Made by a program: the position numbers and the translations under genes. The notes under the pieces were generated by a model that was not told where the DNA came from, ran no database searches, and saw only the letters and a program-made list of their open reading frames with translations. This document shows positions 16,594 through 23,679 of a DNA stretch of 24,000 bases, one piece after another. Source of the DNA: Candidatus Heimdallarchaeota archaeon (GTDB lineage: Archaea; Asgardarchaeota; Heimdallarchaeia; JABLTI01); assembly GCA_019058165.1 (NCBI GenBank), contig JAHLVZ010000030.1:1-24000 (forward strand), given 5' to 3'. The stretch's first letter is position 1; the number at the start of each line of letters is the position of its first letter.

Positions 16594-19347
16594 TCAGTTT
16601 TCATCTTTTTCAAAGAATTTACTAAGTTTCATTTGTTTTGTATGAGTTTTCTTTTCATTTTCTTTTTCTGATTCTAAATCCTCTGAATCTTGTTCAGTTA
16701 CTATATCATCTGATATCCGTTTGAAGATCTCATCAATTGGTTCTGTAGTTAATTTGTTCTTAATCTCTTGTAATGTAACTTTCAAACCAAATCCTTCTGA
16801 AGCACGCAAAATTTCTGCAAGATAATGCTCACGATCAATTTCTGAAGCATATTTAGGATGTTTAGCACGATCACTTAGAATACCTTTGCCCGGAGTTATT
16901 ACCCATTGAAATTTATCAAAATCCTTCCAAGCTGTTGTTGGATCCAATCCTTCTCTTTTAGCAAAATCAAGAAATGCTTGAACAGCTGGCATTTTTGATT
17001 TGTATTTTTCAGGTTCTTTTTTAATCGGTGAAAGAATAACTGCTTTTGGAATAAGTTCTTCAGCAGACATTTGGAGAATCTCAAGACCTAGCTCAATAAG
17101 ATATTGTTTTGCTTTAATCATGCCTGAATCAATATCATCATTTTCAACTTTCTTCTTCATCACAGGTTCAGTTAGGATTAATTCTAGCACTTTTTTTTGT
17201 GAGTCTCGAGAAAGCATAGACCAATCAGAACGAACTGCTTCAAAACCAGTGATCTTTAATTTTCCAGATAAAATGCTATAATAGCTATATGCTTTTGCTC
17301 TCCCTGGTTTGAAAATTAATCTGTAAGCAATATCTTCTAAAGTTAATTCCATAGCTTCAGGGAATTTAGAATTAAGATTTTTAAGAATCGAATTTGTGAT
17401 CTCTATTAGTTTTTCCAGATATTTTTGTTTTTTCTTTGGGTTCTTTTCATTAAAAGCATTTATTACAAATGACTCATCGAGTATTTTTATGAACGCAGAA
17501 TCAGTATCCCCATAAATAATATCAACTGGCGTTATTTTTTTAGAGACCTCTTTCAGAAGCTTCTCCATTTGAAGAATATAGGTTCTTGCGATATTTGTAA
17601 TTGCATTACCAAGTGTAATAGAATAAAACCGACTTCTAATGTAATTGTGACTTCCATACATACTATTAGCAACGATTTTCATTGAATACTGCTCTTTGTC
17701 AAGAATCTCTCGTTCCTCTGATAATCTCTCTTTCTTTTTTTCATCTGTTATATCTTTCAATTTTTGATCAAGTACTTTTATTGCATCTTTCGTATGTTCG
17801 CGACGATGAATCAATGATTCTTCCATTAATGATAGACACGATTGGGGTTTTGAGTGGAATAATTCAAGTGGGTTGGCATCTTCAATATCTTTCACTCTTT
17901 TGAGGGATTCCCCTCCAATATTATGAGCAACACAAACAGATGGATACATACTCCGAAAATCACTGATAATAACACCAAAGTGCAAAGTTCCTTTTGGAAT
18001 TAGAACGGTTCCACCTGTGTGTGGATTTTTCCTCCTTTCAACTCTCCTCCTTGCGACTTCATCATCACTTGGAGCCATAGGTATCAAAACATCCTGAATT
18101 CCAGCGAACCTCATAAGTTCAAATTCCCCTTGGATTCTTTCTGTGCTTCCTGGAGCTTCGCCTGGAGGATAACCTGTTAATCGTATTACCTCAAGCCATC
18201 CTTGAACCCCTAATTTCCAAGTTAATTCGTAAGTTAGTTCACTATCTGTTAGGGAATATTCTTCAAGTTTCTTTTGATCTGCTTTGTTACCTTGTAAAAA
18301 TCCTGATCTCCATAATTCACCAGTGGTCTTTTCTATTTCGATTTTCCCGAATCCAAGTACAGTTTCTGCTATGTCTCCCAAACCCTTTTTACCTGATATT
18401 GGGTGAATCCCCCAAGTTCTAGGTGAAATATCGTAAGAAATTCGTCCTTTGATTCTATAGCAACGATTACGATTTGAATAGAAGACAGAATCATTTTGGA
18501 AAATTGAGAACAAAGCTGAGGGAATTGACAATTTTTCCATTCTAGCTAGGAGATATGGTAAGTCAAAATTATCTCCATTAAATGTGATTAGGACATCTGG
18601 TTGTATGCAATTTACTTCCTTAATGAATTCCTGAATCACTCTAATTTCATCTTGATTTGTATCTCCCTGAAGAATGAATGTTTTACCTCTACTATCAAAT
18701 TGATTAGTTCCCCAAACAGTAGAAATTGCAACTATTCTTTTGGATTTACTACCCAGTAAATGTTGAATCGTTTCTTGTTGATGATCAATTTCGATATCAA
18801 AAGCCATTATTTTTAATTTATAGAAATAATCTGCAGAACTGATAACTTCTTTTGATGCTGGATTTATTTGCATGTAACTCGCATCTATAAAAACTGTGTT
18901 CTCTTCTTTCTTGATGTTTGATGAATTTACCGTAAGAACATTCAAACCACGTAAACCAAGGTCTAACAAGAATCGCTTGATAAAAGGAATATCTGCTTCG
19001 TGTATTTCATAACCTGCTTCTTTAATACGTGTTCTAACTGTAGGAGTTTGTTCTGGATGGGAGCCTGATAATTTGATTAGCTTTAATTCTTCTCCCCCAA
19101 AATACCTTTTCTTCTTGGATTCTTCAATGCGTAGTTTCCATTTCCTAACAATAGGATCTTTTTCAATAAAATCCTCTATTCCTTTTTTATGAGTAATATA
19201 GAAGTAAGGTAGAAAATCTTTAATGGTTATAATTACTGTTTCTTTTTCCGTTTTGCCAAATAATCTTATTGTTGGTGAATCATCTGTATCTTTAATTTTA
19301 TAATCAAGATCAATTAACATAAAAGAGAATTCAGATAAATCTACCAT
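16594..19347 (-). CDS. polB: family-B DNA polymerase (archaeal PolB), exonuclease-proficient, intein-free
   Basis: Exo I is MAFDIEID, Exo II is NGDNFDLPYL, Exo III is YSLTDSELTYEL. Pol motif A is DFRSMYPS, motif B is KIVANSMYGS, motif C is IYGDTDS. A C-terminal PIP box is present. Confidence 0.95.
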   Translation of the reverse strand: MVDLSEFSFMLIDLDYKIKDTDDSPTIRLFGKTEKETVIITIKDFLPYFYITHKKGIEDFIEKDPIVRKWKLRIEESKKKRYFGGEELKLIKLSGSHPEQTPTVRTRIKEAGYEIHEADIPFIKRFLLDLGLRGLNVLTVNSSNIKKEENTVFIDASYMQINPASKEVISSADYFYKLKIMAFDIEIDHQQETIQHLLGSKSKRIVAISTVWGTNQFDSRGKTFILQGDTNQDEIRVIQEFIKEVNCIQPDVLITFNGDNFDLPYLLARMEKLSIPSALFSIFQNDSVFYSNRNRCYRIKGRISYDISPRTWGIHPISGKKGLGDIAETVLGFGKIEIEKTTGELWRSGFLQGNKADQKKLEEYSLTDSELTYELTWKLGVQGWLEVIRLTGYPPGEAPGSTERIQGEFELMRFAGIQDVLIPMAPSDDEVARRRVERRKNPHTGGTVLIPKGTLHFGVIISDFRSMYPSVCVAHNIGGESLKRVKDIEDANPLELFHSKPQSCLSLMEESLIHRREHTKDAIKVLDQKLKDITDEKKKERLSEEREILDKEQYSMKIVANSMYGSHNYIRSRFYSITLGNAITNIARTYILQMEKLLKEVSKKITPVDIIYGDTDSAFIKILDESFVINAFNEKNPKKKQKYLEKLIEITNSILKNLNSKFPEAMELTLEDIAYRLIFKPGRAKAYSYYSILSGKLKITGFEAVRSDWSMLSRDSQKKVLELILTEPVMKKKVENDDIDSGMIKAKQYLIELGLEILQMSAEELIPKAVILSPIKKEPEKYKSKMPAVQAFLDFAKREGLDPTTAWKDFDKFQWVITPGKGILSDRAKHPKYASEIDREHYLAEILRASEGFGLKVTLQEIKNKLTTEPIDEIFKRISDDIVTEQDSEDLESEKENEKKTHTKQMKLSKFFEKDEN
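16612..16635 (-). other. canonical PCNA-interacting peptide (PIP box) at the PolB C-terminus
   Basis: Residues 905-912, QMKLSKFF, match QxxLxxFF and lie 5 residues from the C-terminus. I verified them codon by codon on the reverse strand. Confidence 0.7.
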
Positions 19348-19435
19348 TGCACAACACAGGAATTAATGATTCATATTATGATGTTAACTTATTTCATTTG
19401 AATTTATCTAATACCAAGAAAAAAATTGATTAGAA

Positions 19436-20434
19436 TCAGCTCTTTATAATTGATTTCTGCAAACTCTTGATATCATCTTCACTGAGAATAGTGTCAGGAG
19501 AAATAATGATCTTGTAAATACATTCACGACAGATGTCCATACCGATTTTAAAACCATAGATTTGTGAAAGCATAACTGAATCTTCATATCTTTTAAGAGT
19601 GACTTTGATATTCCTGGTGTCGATTTGCTTAGTAGTTACAGGACATCTCAGAATTTTCTCACCATTCTTTAAAATACAGAAATCTGGACAAATATCCTTG
19701 CCGGAATTCTCCATGGATTCCTTTCTAAGATCAGGTATAATTTCCAAAACCATTTTACTAACTTCATCATGAAATCCAAAACTAGTAAGTTCGGTTTCTA
19801 TAAATTGGTCTTGATTCAAACAATAAGTTGACCCATCTTCCATTTCCTTCAACATTGGACAAGGATAATGAAATGAGTATTCTTCTTCCTTTTTCTTGTC
19901 TACTTTAAACTCAGGAACTTCTCCTGTTGTCTCCTTCAAAATCCAACTATAAACTTCTTTTAAACCAACAAGAGTTACAGCACTTGTACTAATCATTTCC
20001 CAAGATCTGTTAAGAACTCCTTTCAAACCCAACTTGCTAATCAAAGTACTTTCTTTGATGGTTTTCTTAAGATCAGATTTATGTCTGAGAACGCATATAG
20101 GAATGAGTTTTTTCTGGGTATTTCTAAGGATTCTCTTGAATTCTTTTGAAACCTCTTTGAGATTCTTCTTATTTCCAGAGTCAACAACAAAAACTATCAA
20201 ATCTGCAAAAGGGAGAAGAGGAGTAACTTCTTCTCGGAATTTTTCCTGGCCACCTAAATCGAAAATACGAAAATTCATATCTTTCGCTTTGAGCGTACTA
20301 AGAGAGACACCTAAAGTTGGTGCTGTTTTGAAAACATCACCTTTAGTAAATATATTGAGAATTGTTGTCTTTCCTGCGTTAGATAGACCACAAAATAGAA
20401 CAACTTTTGTTTTCTCATTTCCCACTTTAGGCAT
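19436..20434 (-). CDS. eukaryote-type small GTPase (Arf/SR-beta/Rag-like G domain) with a roughly 155-aa Cys-rich C-terminal domain
   Basis: G1 is GLSNAGKTTIL (residues 16-26), switch I is PTLG, G3 is DLGGQ (59-63), G4 is HKSD (118-121, nt 20072-20083), and G5-like is TSAV. The C-terminal region 176-332 carries H189, C192, C205, C249-x3-C253, C264 and C302-x2-C305. Confidence 0.85.
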   Translation of the reverse strand: MPKVGNEKTKVVLFCGLSNAGKTTILNIFTKGDVFKTAPTLGVSLSTLKAKDMNFRIFDLGGQEKFREEVTPLLPFADLIVFVVDSGNKKNLKEVSKEFKRILRNTQKKLIPICVLRHKSDLKKTIKESTLISKLGLKGVLNRSWEMISTSAVTLVGLKEVYSWILKETTGEVPEFKVDKKKEEEYSFHYPCPMLKEMEDGSTYCLNQDQFIETELTSFGFHDEVSKMVLEIIPDLRKESMENSGKDICPDFCILKNGEKILRCPVTTKQIDTRNIKVTLKRYEDSVMLSQIYGFKIGMDICRECIYKIIISPDTILSEDDIKSLQKSIIKS

Positions 20435-20512
20435 AGTAGTTATATTTTCGCTTATACATAAAATATATTTCGATAGTGACTTGTAAGAATAAAAAAGGGA
20501 GATATTGTCTGA

Positions 20513-21580
20513 TTATTGAATAACATCTCTTCGTTTTTTAGCCAAAAATGCTTGGTAAACCTCTGGTGATTCATGAAAAATCTTTTCAACAACGAGATTT
20601 ACAATACGTGACCCATAATCTTGTGACATGTGAGCTTTCTTATGAGTTAGATAAGCTGGTGTAATGAAACCATTACCATCATGATATGTGACCATTGCTT
20701 CTTGAATTTCCTTTAATCGGTTCTTTTGTGGTAAAAGAGAATCAACTCGTATGGGTTGAGCTCCATCCTTTAAAATAAAGTAACTAAGATAGAATGATTG
20801 CAATTCGTCTTCCTGAAATACATTTGCTGCTTTCCAAACTTTTTGTCGTACGGGACTAATTTTAGGAGCAAATTTAATTGGTTTGGTAAATCCTGACTTA
20901 CCTTTTGAAATAATATTGATTAATGATACATCATTAATTGGTGGTTGTTTCTTTGAATCTTTGTGTAAATGTTTCATCAAAATGTTAGCTCGAGAATCCT
21001 TGGATACCCCAACCAGAACTATATCATCTAATATGCTTTTGGTGATTAACTTATACGCTGCTTGAATGAATTTTTGATAAAGACTAAAGAATTTTTCAAT
21101 ATATGATCCTTCATCAATACTATCTAAATCTTCCAAGTAGAATCTTAAACTATGTGGAATACCTTTGTAAGCAAAATTAGTTATAGACCCATCAAGGAAA
21201 AGGATTTCTGGTTTCATTTCTGCTAGCTTTAACGCTACATTCACCTCGAGTAAATCCCGAAAGAGAGATCCAAAATTCCTAGGGTCATCATCCATAGTTA
21301 GGATTTCAACATCATCTTCTTCAATCCAAATTGGATCTTTATTTTGCTCGAAAATAGCACCTGCTGCACGTGATGGTATTATTGCTAAACCTACAAAATC
21401 TTCTGAAAAACCCCCGCCATCTAAAGCAGCAATTTTCCTAGGATTGATTTGTGTAGGTAAATCAAAGAATGGATATTCGATTTTCTTAAGTTCTTTCACA
21501 ATATTTTGTAGTTTGTCTTTAGCAATTCTTACTTTTGAAGTGATATTAGATTCGAAATCCTGAGTAGGTTGTTTATCCAT
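20513..21580 (-). CDS. nurA: NurA-domain nuclease-like protein
   Basis: KIAALDGGG and ILFLDGSITN match the two acidic NurA motifs (xxAxDGS and LDGSL). The C-terminal ITPAYLTHKKAHMS resembles the conserved YPxxLxxAHxxAxxS block. No HerA, Mre11 or Rad50 gene lies in the window. Confidence 0.55.
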   Translation of the reverse strand: MDKQPTQDFESNITSKVRIAKDKLQNIVKELKKIEYPFFDLPTQINPRKIAALDGGGFSEDFVGLAIIPSRAAGAIFEQNKDPIWIEEDDVEILTMDDDPRNFGSLFRDLLEVNVALKLAEMKPEILFLDGSITNFAYKGIPHSLRFYLEDLDSIDEGSYIEKFFSLYQKFIQAAYKLITKSILDDIVLVGVSKDSRANILMKHLHKDSKKQPPINDVSLINIISKGKSGFTKPIKFAPKISPVRQKVWKAANVFQEDELQSFYLSYFILKDGAQPIRVDSLLPQKNRLKEIQEAMVTYHDGNGFITPAYLTHKKAHMSQDYGSRIVNLVVEKIFHESPEVYQAFLAKKRRDVIQ

Positions 21581-21653: not shown

Positions 21654-22043
21654 TTATTTTGATTTTAATGCTTTTTTCATTGTTTCTTTTGCTTCTGTTT
21701 CTTTTCCAAGTTTTCTCAAAGCTAATCCCTTATTGAACTGCGCATCTCGATGCTCAGGGTTAATTTTGAGTATTGTGTCAAAGTATTGTAATGACTCCTC
21801 ATCTTGAGAAGCTTCAATCAACACTAAACCTTTCATAAATAAGTAATCAATATCTTTAGGGTTTAGTGAAAGCAAAATATCATGGACTTCTATTGCTTCA
21901 CTATATCTATCAAGATGACGTAAACAAGAAGATTTTTCTAAAAGTGCTGAAACATTTTTTTCATCTTTACTGAGAATTTCTTCTAATTCTTTGAGTCGTT
22001 CTTCAATTTCCTCTGGATTTTTATCGTGTATATCTTTAGTCAA
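21654..22043 (-). CDS. small TPR-repeat protein
   Basis: Three TPR units in 129 aa (ALLEKSSCLRHLDRYSEAIEVHDILLSLNPKD..., FMKGLVLIEASQDEESLQYFDTILKINPEH..., QFNKGLALRKLGKETEAKETMKKAL). Confidence 0.8.
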   Translation of the reverse strand: MTKDIHDKNPEEIEERLKELEEILSKDEKNVSALLEKSSCLRHLDRYSEAIEVHDILLSLNPKDIDYLFMKGLVLIEASQDEESLQYFDTILKINPEHRDAQFNKGLALRKLGKETEAKETMKKALKSK

Positions 22044-22257: not shown

Positions 22258-23679
22258 TTGATGCTAAGTAAAATCTATAAAAGAAGAGCCATTCTAGCAG
22301 AGGTAATAGTCGATAGAAAGACAGGAGATCACTTAGCTGAATTATCAGAATTAGCATATGTTGTTGGTTATAATGTCGTTGATAGAGTAACTCAAAAAAC
22401 TGATAGATTGCATCCTGAATATTTATTTGGTAAAGGAAAAGCAAAGGAAATCAAAGGTCGAATCAAAGAATTAAACGCAAGTATTGTGATAATTGAGAAC
22501 AAACTTGATGCTATTCAATTAGATAATTTAAGAAAAATGTGGCGAGTAGAAATCATTGATAGATTTGAAATTATTCTTGAGATATTTATCAAGAAAGCAG
22601 GAACTCAAGAAGCGCTGACTCAGATTCGTTTAGCGGCATTAAAGAAAGTAGTTGGGTCGCGTTTTGAAAGTCACAGAAGTGTTACATCTCGAAATGTCTT
22701 AATAAAGAAATTAGAGAAAAAATTAGATCTAATTAAGAAATCAAAAGATCTGCGAAGAAAAAGAAGGTTGAAAACGGGATTTGATTTAGTAGCAATTGCT
22801 GGGTATACTAATTCTGGAAAAAGTACTCTAATGAATGCTTTGACTGAAGCTGAAGTTGAAATAAGTGGTAGAATGTTTACAACATTAGATACGACAACAA
22901 GAAGTTTCGATGCAGATGGAAGAAAAATATTAATCACAGATACAGTTGGATTCATATCCCGACTCCCACATGTGTTAATGGCTGCTTTTTATGCAACCTT
23001 GAAAGAAGTGACAGAAGCTGATTTAATCCTATTATTAATTGACTGTAATGATTCTGTGGAAAACATTAAGATGAAAGTTCTAGCATCAATGAATACTTTA
23101 GGTGCGATCGAAGCTGAAGCAATTCCATTAATTCCTGTTCTAAATAAAATGGATATCGCACAAAATAGAGATGAAAAACTGGAAATAGTTAAAGCTGCAT
23201 TGAAAAAACAACCAGTAATGATAAGTGCAAAAGATGAAACCAATATGGATGCCCTTAGAGCTGAAATTCTAAATATTCTCGAAACATATCGTTTTCATTT
23301 GAAAATACCTAATAATAATGAAGGCATGTCCTTGGTTTCCCGAATTCATGACAAAACAAGAATTACAGAAGAAATATTCCATGAAAAAGTTATAGAATTG
23401 AGATTTGAAACTAATGAACGACTAGGCAGATATCTCTATAACACTATCAAGAAAAGTAATTTAGACGTTGAAATTACAAATGAAGAAATTCTCTTAAAGC
23501 AATTGAAGAAAAAAGAGACAGAACCAACAGAAGATGGTTATAAAATAATTAAAACTGAATCCGGTGAAGAATTTGTTATATTTGATCTCGTAGAAGAGAA
23601 AACAAATGAGGAGAATCTAGAATTACTGGATGAACCTGAAAAATTAGGTAAAATAACCTCACTTAAAGAAAAAAAATAA
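22258..23679 (+). CDS. hflX: GTPase HflX with an acidic C-terminal extension
   Basis: The HflX N-domain reads HPEYLFGKGKAKEI...IIDRFEIILEIFIKKAGTQEA. G1 is GYTNSGKST, followed by FTTLDTT. G3 is DTVGFISRLPHVLMAAFYATLKE and G4 is NKMD. AAGGTGA sits 5 nt before ATG 22261, which is the likely true start; the track uses TTG 22258. Confidence 0.85.
   Translation: MMLSKIYKRRAILAEVIVDRKTGDHLAELSELAYVVGYNVVDRVTQKTDRLHPEYLFGKGKAKEIKGRIKELNASIVIIENKLDAIQLDNLRKMWRVEIIDRFEIILEIFIKKAGTQEALTQIRLAALKKVVGSRFESHRSVTSRNVLIKKLEKKLDLIKKSKDLRRKRRLKTGFDLVAIAGYTNSGKSTLMNALTEAEVEISGRMFTTLDTTTRSFDADGRKILITDTVGFISRLPHVLMAAFYATLKEVTEADLILLLIDCNDSVENIKMKVLASMNTLGAIEAEAIPLIPVLNKMDIAQNRDEKLEIVKAALKKQPVMISAKDETNMDALRAEILNILETYRFHLKIPNNNEGMSLVSRIHDKTRITEEIFHEKVIELRFETNERLGRYLYNTIKKSNLDVEITNEEILLKQLKKKETEPTEDGYKIIKTESGEEFVIFDLVEEKTNEENLELLDEPEKLGKITSLKEKK

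Follow-up and report, generated by a model that had tools for sequence, protein, structure and literature searches.

Arf-type GTPases of the Asgard archaea are central to the debate on when membrane trafficking arose, and only single-domain, helix-bearing members have been studied so far. The characterized ArfRs are proteins of approximately 170–190 aa, which consist of a single domain, begin with an N-terminal amphipathic helix, and carry an NKxD sequence at the G4 motif. Such a helix is present in just 19 of 210 AArfs (PMC11914678) and in 45 of the 94 ArfRs analyzed (Vargova et al., bioRxiv 10.1101/2024.02.28.582541), and hence does not define the archaeal Arf group. AArfs with extra non-Arf domains exist, and many AArfs were concluded not to act on membranes (PMC11914678). 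Diffuse localization in yeast has been reported for AArfs devoid of the helix. In both surveys, family members with extra domains are mentioned or set aside, and no description is given of the fusion presented below (bioRxiv 10.1101/2024.02.28.582541; PMC11914678). This article is focused on a 332-aa two-domain GTPase encoded in a 24,000-nucleotide stretch of Candidatus Heimdallarchaeota archaeon DNA (contig JAHLVZ010000030.1 of assembly GCA_019058165.1, positions 1–24,000), hereafter referred to as the window. An earlier note, made from the sequence alone, had offered two readings of this protein: an Asgard Rag-like GTPase with a novel metal- or redox-sensing C-terminal domain, or a new Arf-related fusion. 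The analysis favors the latter, as an Arf-type G domain is joined here to a cysteine-rich domain that forms an Asgard-only family of its own. It reads best as a GTP switch of the ArfR type that carries its own module, probably one that binds zinc.

The Arf-Type G Domain and Its G4 Motif

The gene is read on the minus strand from an ATG at 20434 to a stop codon at 19436–19438 (open reading frame [ORF] listing), and the plus-strand frame over 19436–20434 is closed by many stops. An identical protein is already present in a public collection as P0172. Codon-exact translation recovered every motif and cysteine named in the earlier note, including VFVVDS, the HKSD of G4, and the listed histidine and cysteine residues of the C-terminal half.

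The G domain is of the Arf type and not of the Rag type. The best-scoring GTPase model for the window protein is Pfam Arf (PF00025; 127.3 bits, E 5.5e-37, cutoff 22.3); lower scores were obtained with SRPRB (50.2 bits), Ras (43.3 bits), and Gtr1_RagA (PF04670; 38.7 bits), the last match being confined to model positions 2–128 of 232, i.e., the G-domain part. The best 60 matches of a PDB sequence search comprise Arf, Arl1, Arl3, and Arl8 (approximately 1e-20 to 1e-24) together with two entries named "GTP-binding protein" (8oun and 8oum). In BLASTP comparisons, the window protein gives 92 bits and 34% identity with a eukaryotic Arf, vs. 32 bits and 23% identity with human RagA. Furthermore, the full-length model by AlphaFold2 (AF2), built from an alignment of 29 orthologs, has a mean predicted local distance difference test (pLDDT) score of 70 and a predicted template modeling (pTM) score of 0.66, and its best Foldseek match is 8oum, the crystal structure of GerdArfR1 (E 7.5e-9, TM(target) 0.68, 33% identity). 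The other 49 of the best 50 Foldseek matches are all Arf or Arl, and no Rag/Gtr chain is found among these 50. No PDB chain spans both domains among the Foldseek matches listed, the longest alignment having 187 columns; GTPases dominate the 987 matches at E ≤ 0.001, and matches to the C-terminal domain would be hidden among them. By hidden Markov model (HMM), motifs, and fold, the window protein belongs to the Asgard ArfR/AArf group; the Arf-type motifs GxxxxGKT(T), PT(I/L)G, DxGGQ, and (T/C)(S/A)(A/T) are represented by GLSNAGKTT, PTLG, DLGGQ, and TSA. Across the 29 orthologs, K22, T23, T40, D59, G62, Q63, K119, S151, and A152 are invariant and D121 is nearly so; judged by its sequence, the protein should function as an Arf-type switch for guanine nucleotides.

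Approximately 30 full-length orthologs with 56–93% identity were collected, almost all labeled Heimdall or Asgard, in addition to a few fragments and near-identical cluster members. In a census of 40 ortholog sequences, G4 reads HKxD in 36 (HKSD in 32 and HKAD in four) and NKxD in three, one sequence being unscorable. A second fusion subfamily of approximately 336 aa, uncovered by a profile search with the C-terminal domain, carries NKxD in all 51 clusters. The paralog P0125 aligns with the window protein across 320 residues at 33% identity and shares its architecture, which points to one ancestral fusion and a subsequent duplication. The two fusion paralogs occur together in GCA_019058195.1 and in six reference metagenome-assembled genomes (MAGs), these six being all of the reference MAGs that bear the HKxD subfamily. 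Mean G-domain identity of the HKxD subfamily is 35.5% with the NKxD fusion subfamily and 29% with eukaryotic Arfs; with RagA it is 21%, compared with 21.5% for the NKxD fusion subfamily, i.e., there is no excess for HKxD. A neighbor-joining tree of both fusion subfamilies, eukaryotic Arfs, and RagA, which contains no ArfL, SR-beta, or MglA references, gives the branching of the three Arf groups a bootstrap value of 62%, too low to establish their order.

The HKxD motif had led the earlier note toward Rag, and the comparison behind it was accurate: RagA (residues 1–183 identical to PDB 6ces_A) reads LVHKMDL, with HKMD at G4. By the census, however, HKxD is a derived substitution inside an Arf-type NKxD lineage following duplication and is convergent with Rag instead of marking kinship with it, because NKxD is present in three orthologs and in 51 of 51 paralog clusters and because identity to RagA is equal for both subfamilies. 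Taken with the HMM scores, the identities, and the Foldseek result, this leaves the reading as a Rag-like GTPase unsupported. The lysine and aspartate of G4, which are the guanine-specificity residues, are retained in HKSD; the histidine probably takes over the role of the asparagine in bracing the P-loop and the guanine, and D121 would keep guanine specificity. Thus, although HKxD is frequently taken to identify Rag proteins, an Arf lineage acquired it independently, and the motif is unsafe as the sole basis for classification. Two cysteines of the G domain are additionally characteristic of the HKxD subfamily: C15 (codon 20390–20392, minus strand), just before the P-loop, is invariant, and C114 (codon 20093–20095, minus strand), in the strand preceding G4, is nearly invariant. 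The equivalent positions are V/I and L in the NKxD paralogs, implying that both cysteines appeared together with His118.

The P-loop glycine is preceded by 15 residues in the window protein, seven in the paralog, and 23–26 in most eukaryotic Arf matches, and the N-terminal segment MPKVGNEKT is hydrophilic; as read from the sequence, the protein lacks the amphipathic helix with which membrane-binding Arfs begin. A C-terminal amphipathic helix was considered as a membrane anchor and rejected, its hydrophobic moment of 0.51 being reached by 95 of 500 shuffles, and neither a terminal cysteine nor a polybasic tail occurs in the HKxD subfamily (0 of 40). The NKxD fusion subfamily (P0088 and P0090–P0140; e.g., 6001–7011 of L008) has a polybasic stretch, LKRKIKAG..., at its end, and in 46 of 51 clusters one of the last four residues is a cysteine, typically as a C-terminal ...DLSKC. 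For this terminal cysteine, a role as a seventh metal ligand is conceivable, as is one in membrane targeting of the lipidation type. In MK-D1, no terminal-cysteine small GTPases were reported (Tran et al., 2024).

The Cysteine-Rich C-Terminal Domain

Profile searches with the C-terminal domain define a family of 116 protein clusters, almost all of which are Asgard-labeled. A few clusters are labeled Bathyarchaeia, Thorarchaeota, or Thermotogota, probably owing to mislabeling or mis-binning, because the same MAGs carry both Heimdall-type paralogs; the oddly labeled MAG records are P0018/P0091 (SMAG_U14241), P0138, and P0116/P0037. The family has three branches: the HKxD fusions, the NKxD fusions, and stand-alone proteins of 120–163 aa from Promethearchaeota and Borrarchaeum. 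C192, P193, C205, C249, C264, C302, C305, Y307, and K308 are invariant in all three branches and P191 is nearly invariant, whereas C253 is limited to the HKxD subfamily and one outlier. The window protein has nine cysteines in total, C15 and C114 in the G domain and seven in the C-terminal domain. The seven cysteines in 137 residues (5.1%) compare with a cysteine content of 0.61% across the 17 remaining long ORFs of the window (P = 2.5e-5, binomial), and the pattern is not due to chance because all seven are invariant in the 29 orthologs over their whole range of identity. In three of these orthologs, H189 is replaced by Y or F. The metal-type set of cysteine and histidine residues proposed in the earlier note consequently stands for the six family-wide cysteines but not for H189, which is not conserved, nor in the same way for C253, which is subfamily-specific; metal or redox sensing can be put forward only conditionally.

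In the stand-alone PCPC forms, seven cysteines are invariant and 20 of 22 have an eighth, so that there are enough for two Cys4 sites. Fused members hold the six core cysteines and one lineage-specific cysteine at differing positions, which suggests that the metal-ligand set is plastic. Compared with a generic metal-site threshold of at least four conserved Cys/His ligands, the domain has six cysteines in all branches, seven in the HKxD subfamily, and eight in the stand-alone forms. We infer that the six core cysteines ligate a metal, most likely structural zinc, because the protein is cytoplasmic and archaeal, has CP motifs and a CxxC at a helix start, and has stand-alone relatives with eight cysteines.

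No match to residues 176–312 was found in Pfam, NCBIfam, or PDB sequences, whether single sequences or profiles were used. Profiles of the domain gave zero matches to PDB sequences apart from one chance match (RsbX, E 0.6), and Pfam and NCBIfam scans of individual members at E ≤ 10 gave scattered chance matches only, among which a FeThRed_B match (E 0.19, two of 20 members) was considered and rejected as chance. In the full-length AF2 model, residues 180–310 have a pLDDT of approximately 75–90, whereas the domain modeled alone from a 20-sequence alignment has a pLDDT of 48, and a Foldseek search of PDB with this low-scoring isolated model gave nothing below E = 4. Confident modeling in the full-length context only is compatible with packing of the domain on the G domain. 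The predicted order of elements is a five-strand meander, a helix, a hairpin with C249 and C253, short strands, and three helices, and C302-x2-C305 opens the second of these three C-terminal helices (H303–310). With its knuckle and a later CxxC where a helix begins, the modeled arrangement may be likened to a treble-clef zinc site. The domain contains only one CxxC; R282 and R303 are subfamily-specific, and no arginine is invariant family-wide.

The C-terminal domain is a conserved, Asgard-restricted family that appears to be undescribed. Neither the two Asgard Arf papers nor Tran et al. (2024) nor the archaeal fold survey was found to describe it, and an accession and motif search in part of the supplement to the ArfR preprint gave no trace of the fusion proteins. 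The stand-alone forms (27 sequences, e.g., P0087 and P0152) bear a C-x3-C-P-C motif. Behind one type of stand-alone gene in Borrarchaeum and Promethearchaeota there is regularly an overlapping, highly conserved ORF of approximately 136–153 aa with no Pfam match (regions 3938–6583 of L028, 3965–6612 of L029, 1609–4389 of L006, and 1069–3849 of L007), which reads MLTRL.I.DLT...FFPPIRSSNVTKLL...STGICNYE..CLWEGY, and then by an AAA/STAND-like ATPase of approximately 385–394 aa with a C-terminal winged helix. The stand-alone cysteine gene, the overlapping ORF, and the ATPase may constitute a three-gene module.

Sequence Features and Genomic Setting

The features of the gene and its surroundings are compiled in Table 1.

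Table 1. Positions in the window of the GTPase gene, its motifs, and the adjoining regions.
Feature	Positions	Strand	Basis or remark
Complete gene, 332-aa two-domain protein	19436..20434	-	ORF listing; P0172 identical; ~30 full-length orthologs
Arf-family G domain, residues 7–168	19931..20416	-	Pfam PF00025, PDB Arf/Arl matches, Foldseek
G1/P-loop GLSNAGKTT, residues 16–24	20363..20389	-	Invariant save N19 (Y/F in some orthologs)
Switch I/G2 PTLG, residues 39–42, Arf-type PT(I/L)G motif	20309..20320	-	T40 invariant
G3/switch II DLGGQ, residues 59–63	20246..20260	-	Q63 invariant, aligned with Arf1 catalytic Q71
G4 HKSD, residues 118–121, subfamily-specific NKxD variant	20072..20083	-	Codon translation, ortholog census
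G5 TSA, residues 150–152	19979..19987	-	S151 and A152 invariant
Cysteine-rich C-terminal domain, residues 176–312	19499..19909	-	Alignments, profile searches, AF2 full-length model
C192 codon, in PCP motif	19859..19861	-	Codon translation, family alignment
C205 codon, in C-L-N-x-D motif	19820..19822	-	Codon translation, family alignment
C249-P-D-F-C253 knuckle-like motif, predicted beta-hairpin	19676..19690	-	Only C249 family-wide
C264 codon, in RCP motif	19643..19645	-	Codon translation, family alignment
C302-R-E-C305, N-terminus of predicted helix, then invariant Y307-K308	19520..19531	-	Translation, AF2, alignment
C-terminal tail, residues 313–332, low-confidence predicted helix, without terminal Cys	19439..19498	-	AF2 model, census
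Upstream intergenic region, between NurA stop and GTPase ATG	20435..20512	-	Read from sequence
Downstream intergenic region, then PolB gene	19348..19435	-	Read from sequence
Collinear-block neighbors: PolB, NurA, small TPR protein, HflX	16594-19347, 20513-21580, 21654-22043, 22258-23679	-, -, -, +	

The window is ordinary chromosomal DNA of approximately 32% GC. Its genes include those for a GHMP kinase, an EamA transporter, HIT and PIN_5 proteins, a TSP3-repeat protein, a HAD hydrolase, a family-B DNA polymerase (PolB), NurA, a TPR protein, and HflX. NurA, the GTPase, and PolB follow one another on one strand here and in five of the six ortholog loci examined, down to 56% identity, and PolB adjoins the GTPase in all six; the most divergent genome (L003) has no NurA in the block. 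A whole block of approximately 15 kb, comprising saccharopine dehydrogenase, PTP, HflX, TPR, NurA, GTPase, PolB, and HAD, is collinear among related genomes, and the paralog and stand-alone genes sit in unrelated contexts. In the upstream intergenic region, the stop codon of NurA is followed by a T-run, and an A/T-rich TATA-like box lies approximately 25–35 nucleotides before the ATG, suggesting that the GTPase gene has its own promoter; directly after the GTPase stop, a T8 run is likely an archaeal terminator. A NurA/PolB operon was considered as functional evidence and rejected, since the block is collinear in related genomes and T-runs separate the genes. Owing to this collinearity and to the T-runs and TATA-like box, the neighborhood is treated as uninformative on the function of the GTPase. 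No HerA-like ATPase is annotated adjoining NurA in the window or related loci.

Elsewhere in the window, an ORF of 1120 aa (8662–12024, minus strand) bears, toward its C-terminus, calcium-binding repeats of the bacterial TSP3 (thrombospondin type 3-like) kind and is kept at the same position in the related genomes L001 and L002. Four ORFs of 149–316 aa, all on the minus strand, are without a Pfam match (13245–14195, 14787–15428, 7746–8564, and 1343–1792), and for those of 316 and 213 aa, related Heimdall genomes have unannotated genes of similar size in the corresponding place.

Proposed Function, Alternatives, and Known Counterparts

It is proposed, with moderate confidence, that the window protein is a GTP switch of the ArfR type whose attached module probably binds zinc and serves to engage partners or to regulate the switch. 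The cysteine-rich domain would be the partner-binding or regulatory part of this Arf switch: as GTP is bound and hydrolyzed, the two switches (I and II) and the interswitch would be rearranged, and this rearrangement would alter the packing of the cysteine-rich domain on the G domain as well as the engagement of partners.

Among the alternatives that concern kinship or partnership of the GTPase, true membership in the Rag/Gtr family, with an HKxD G domain and a roadblock-type dimerization domain that gained cysteines, is extremely unlikely. The HKSD motif does parallel the HKMD of RagA, the length and two-domain layout are similar, and Asgard Rag-like GTPases fused to roadblock or longin domains exist (PMC10933270); however, the G-domain scores and identities and the NKxD of orthologs and paralogs described above are those of an Arf lineage, no roadblock or longin match was obtained in Pfam even at E ≤ 10, and the predicted order of five strands, helix, hairpin, and three helices differs from the roadblock order. 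A Rag-like mode of action independent of Rag descent, in which the HKxD and NKxD paralogs heterodimerize via their cysteine-rich domains as RagA and RagC do via roadblock domains, is rather improbable. It would agree with the co-occurrence of both paralogs in all six HKxD-bearing reference MAGs and GCA_019058195.1, with the preservation of the same C-terminal domain in both over a long divergence, and with the lack of a membrane-binding N-terminal helix in either; yet co-occurrence of paralogs is commonplace and proves nothing, the two genes are unlinked, and at least three reference MAGs have the NKxD subfamily only, as counted by a single-pattern scan of incomplete MAGs. The more specific proposal that the metal or redox state of the cysteine-rich domains gates signaling by such a heterodimer is distinctly doubtful. 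If true, the closest archaeal relatives of eukaryotes would have arrived by convergence at a metal-dependent equivalent of the Rag/Gtr nutrient switch, with an Arf chassis and a previously unknown fold.

Other alternatives assign a different role to the cysteine-rich domain itself. An iron–sulfur (Fe-S) cluster or a redox-active Cys/Zn site, which would make the protein a sensor of redox, oxygen, or metal, is unlikely: the six to eight invariant cysteines, the CP motifs, and the faint FeThRed_B match would fit, but this match is at chance level, the cysteine spacing fits no recognized Fe-S signature, and no Fe-S assembly or redox genes are located nearby. A zinc-stabilized membrane- or lipid-binding module, similar in function to FYVE or C1 and replacing the missing N-terminal helix, is a fairly unlikely reading, for which the absence of the helix and the resemblance of the polybasic stretch and terminal cysteine of the paralog (46 of 51 clusters) to Ras/Rho membrane-targeting tails may be cited; against it, the HKxD subfamily has neither tail nor terminal cysteine, the amphipathicity of the tail is matched by shuffles as noted above, and no similarity to FYVE, C1, or PH was found in Pfam. 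Participation in replication or repair with NurA and PolB, the domain being a nucleic-acid-binding zinc module, is very unlikely despite the conserved gene order, as adjacency within the collinear block reflects close relatedness, NurA is missing in L003, the T-runs after both stop codons and the TATA-like box suggest separate transcripts, and the paralog and stand-alone forms are found elsewhere. A built-in GTPase-activating domain comparable to TRIM23/ARD1 or to the zinc finger of ArfGAP is equally hard to credit. Arf GTPase-activating proteins (GAPs) use a Cys4 zinc finger, and neither an Arf GAP nor a guanine-nucleotide exchange factor (GEF) is on record from Asgard genomes (PMC11914678); nevertheless, the domain has no Pfam match to ArfGap (PF01412), no CxxC-x16-CxxC-x4-R pattern, and no family-wide invariant arginine.

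Since Asgard GTPases with several domains were known before and the link to Rag fails, an Arf switch with a putative built-in zinc-type module comes as no great surprise, but it should be of interest in research on Asgard GTPases. Its significance lies in a conserved, duplicated Arf branch of the Heimdall group that is unable to use canonical membrane anchoring and carries a cysteine-rich domain with no known relatives. The ligand of this domain would reveal targets of the Arf switch before, or apart from, vesicle budding, and the domain would add a new metal-binding family restricted to Asgard archaea.

Several known systems can be compared with the window protein. Asgard TRAPPC3/V4R-type domains of approximately 150 aa have a cysteine-ligated zinc site whose ligand positions vary by lineage (PMC10933270), and their likeness to the present domain in size, Asgard origin, association with trafficking, and cysteine ligation, which is only probable here, is a lead only: a TRAPPC3/V4R-like domain was rejected, since there is no Pfam or PDB-sequence match, where the PDB sequences searched should include the Thor-TRAPPC3 crystal structures (by reading of PMC10933270), and the predicted fold opens with a beta-meander instead of two N-terminal helices. 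Rag/Gtr proteins (RagA, Gtr1) share HKxD at G4, two domains, a length of approximately 310–330 aa, and two paralogs per genome, whereas the G domain of the window protein is only 23% identical to that of RagA, its C-terminal domain shows no roadblock signature, and its HKxD is independent.

In the eukaryotic TRIM23/ARD1, RING and B-box zinc modules are fused to an Arf domain, and the non-Arf part serves as a GAP for its own Arf domain. The window protein likewise has an Arf domain covalently tied to a cysteine-rich, putative zinc module, which would work on the Arf switch or by way of it; unlike TRIM23/ARD1, it is archaeal, has the opposite domain order, and shows neither a RING/B-box Pfam match nor homology. 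Eukaryotic Arf/Arl proteins (Arf1, Arl1, and Arl3) are 30–37% identical to it over the whole G domain (E approximately 1e-24) with conserved catalytic glutamine and switch motifs, whereas the window protein is without a myristoylated/amphipathic N-terminus, has histidine for asparagine at G4, and carries the extra C-terminal domain. The closest systems are the Asgard ArfR/AArf proteins, including GerdArfR1 (8oum/8oun) and HodArfR1, which likewise have an Arf-type G domain with PT(I/L)G, DxGGQ, and TSA motifs and belong to the Heimdallarchaeia lineage. Compared with the characterized ArfRs, the window protein is without the helix, reads HKSD, and has an additional 135-residue domain with six core cysteines; its G4 residue, missing helix, and extra domain set it apart from the characterized ArfR/AArf proteins.

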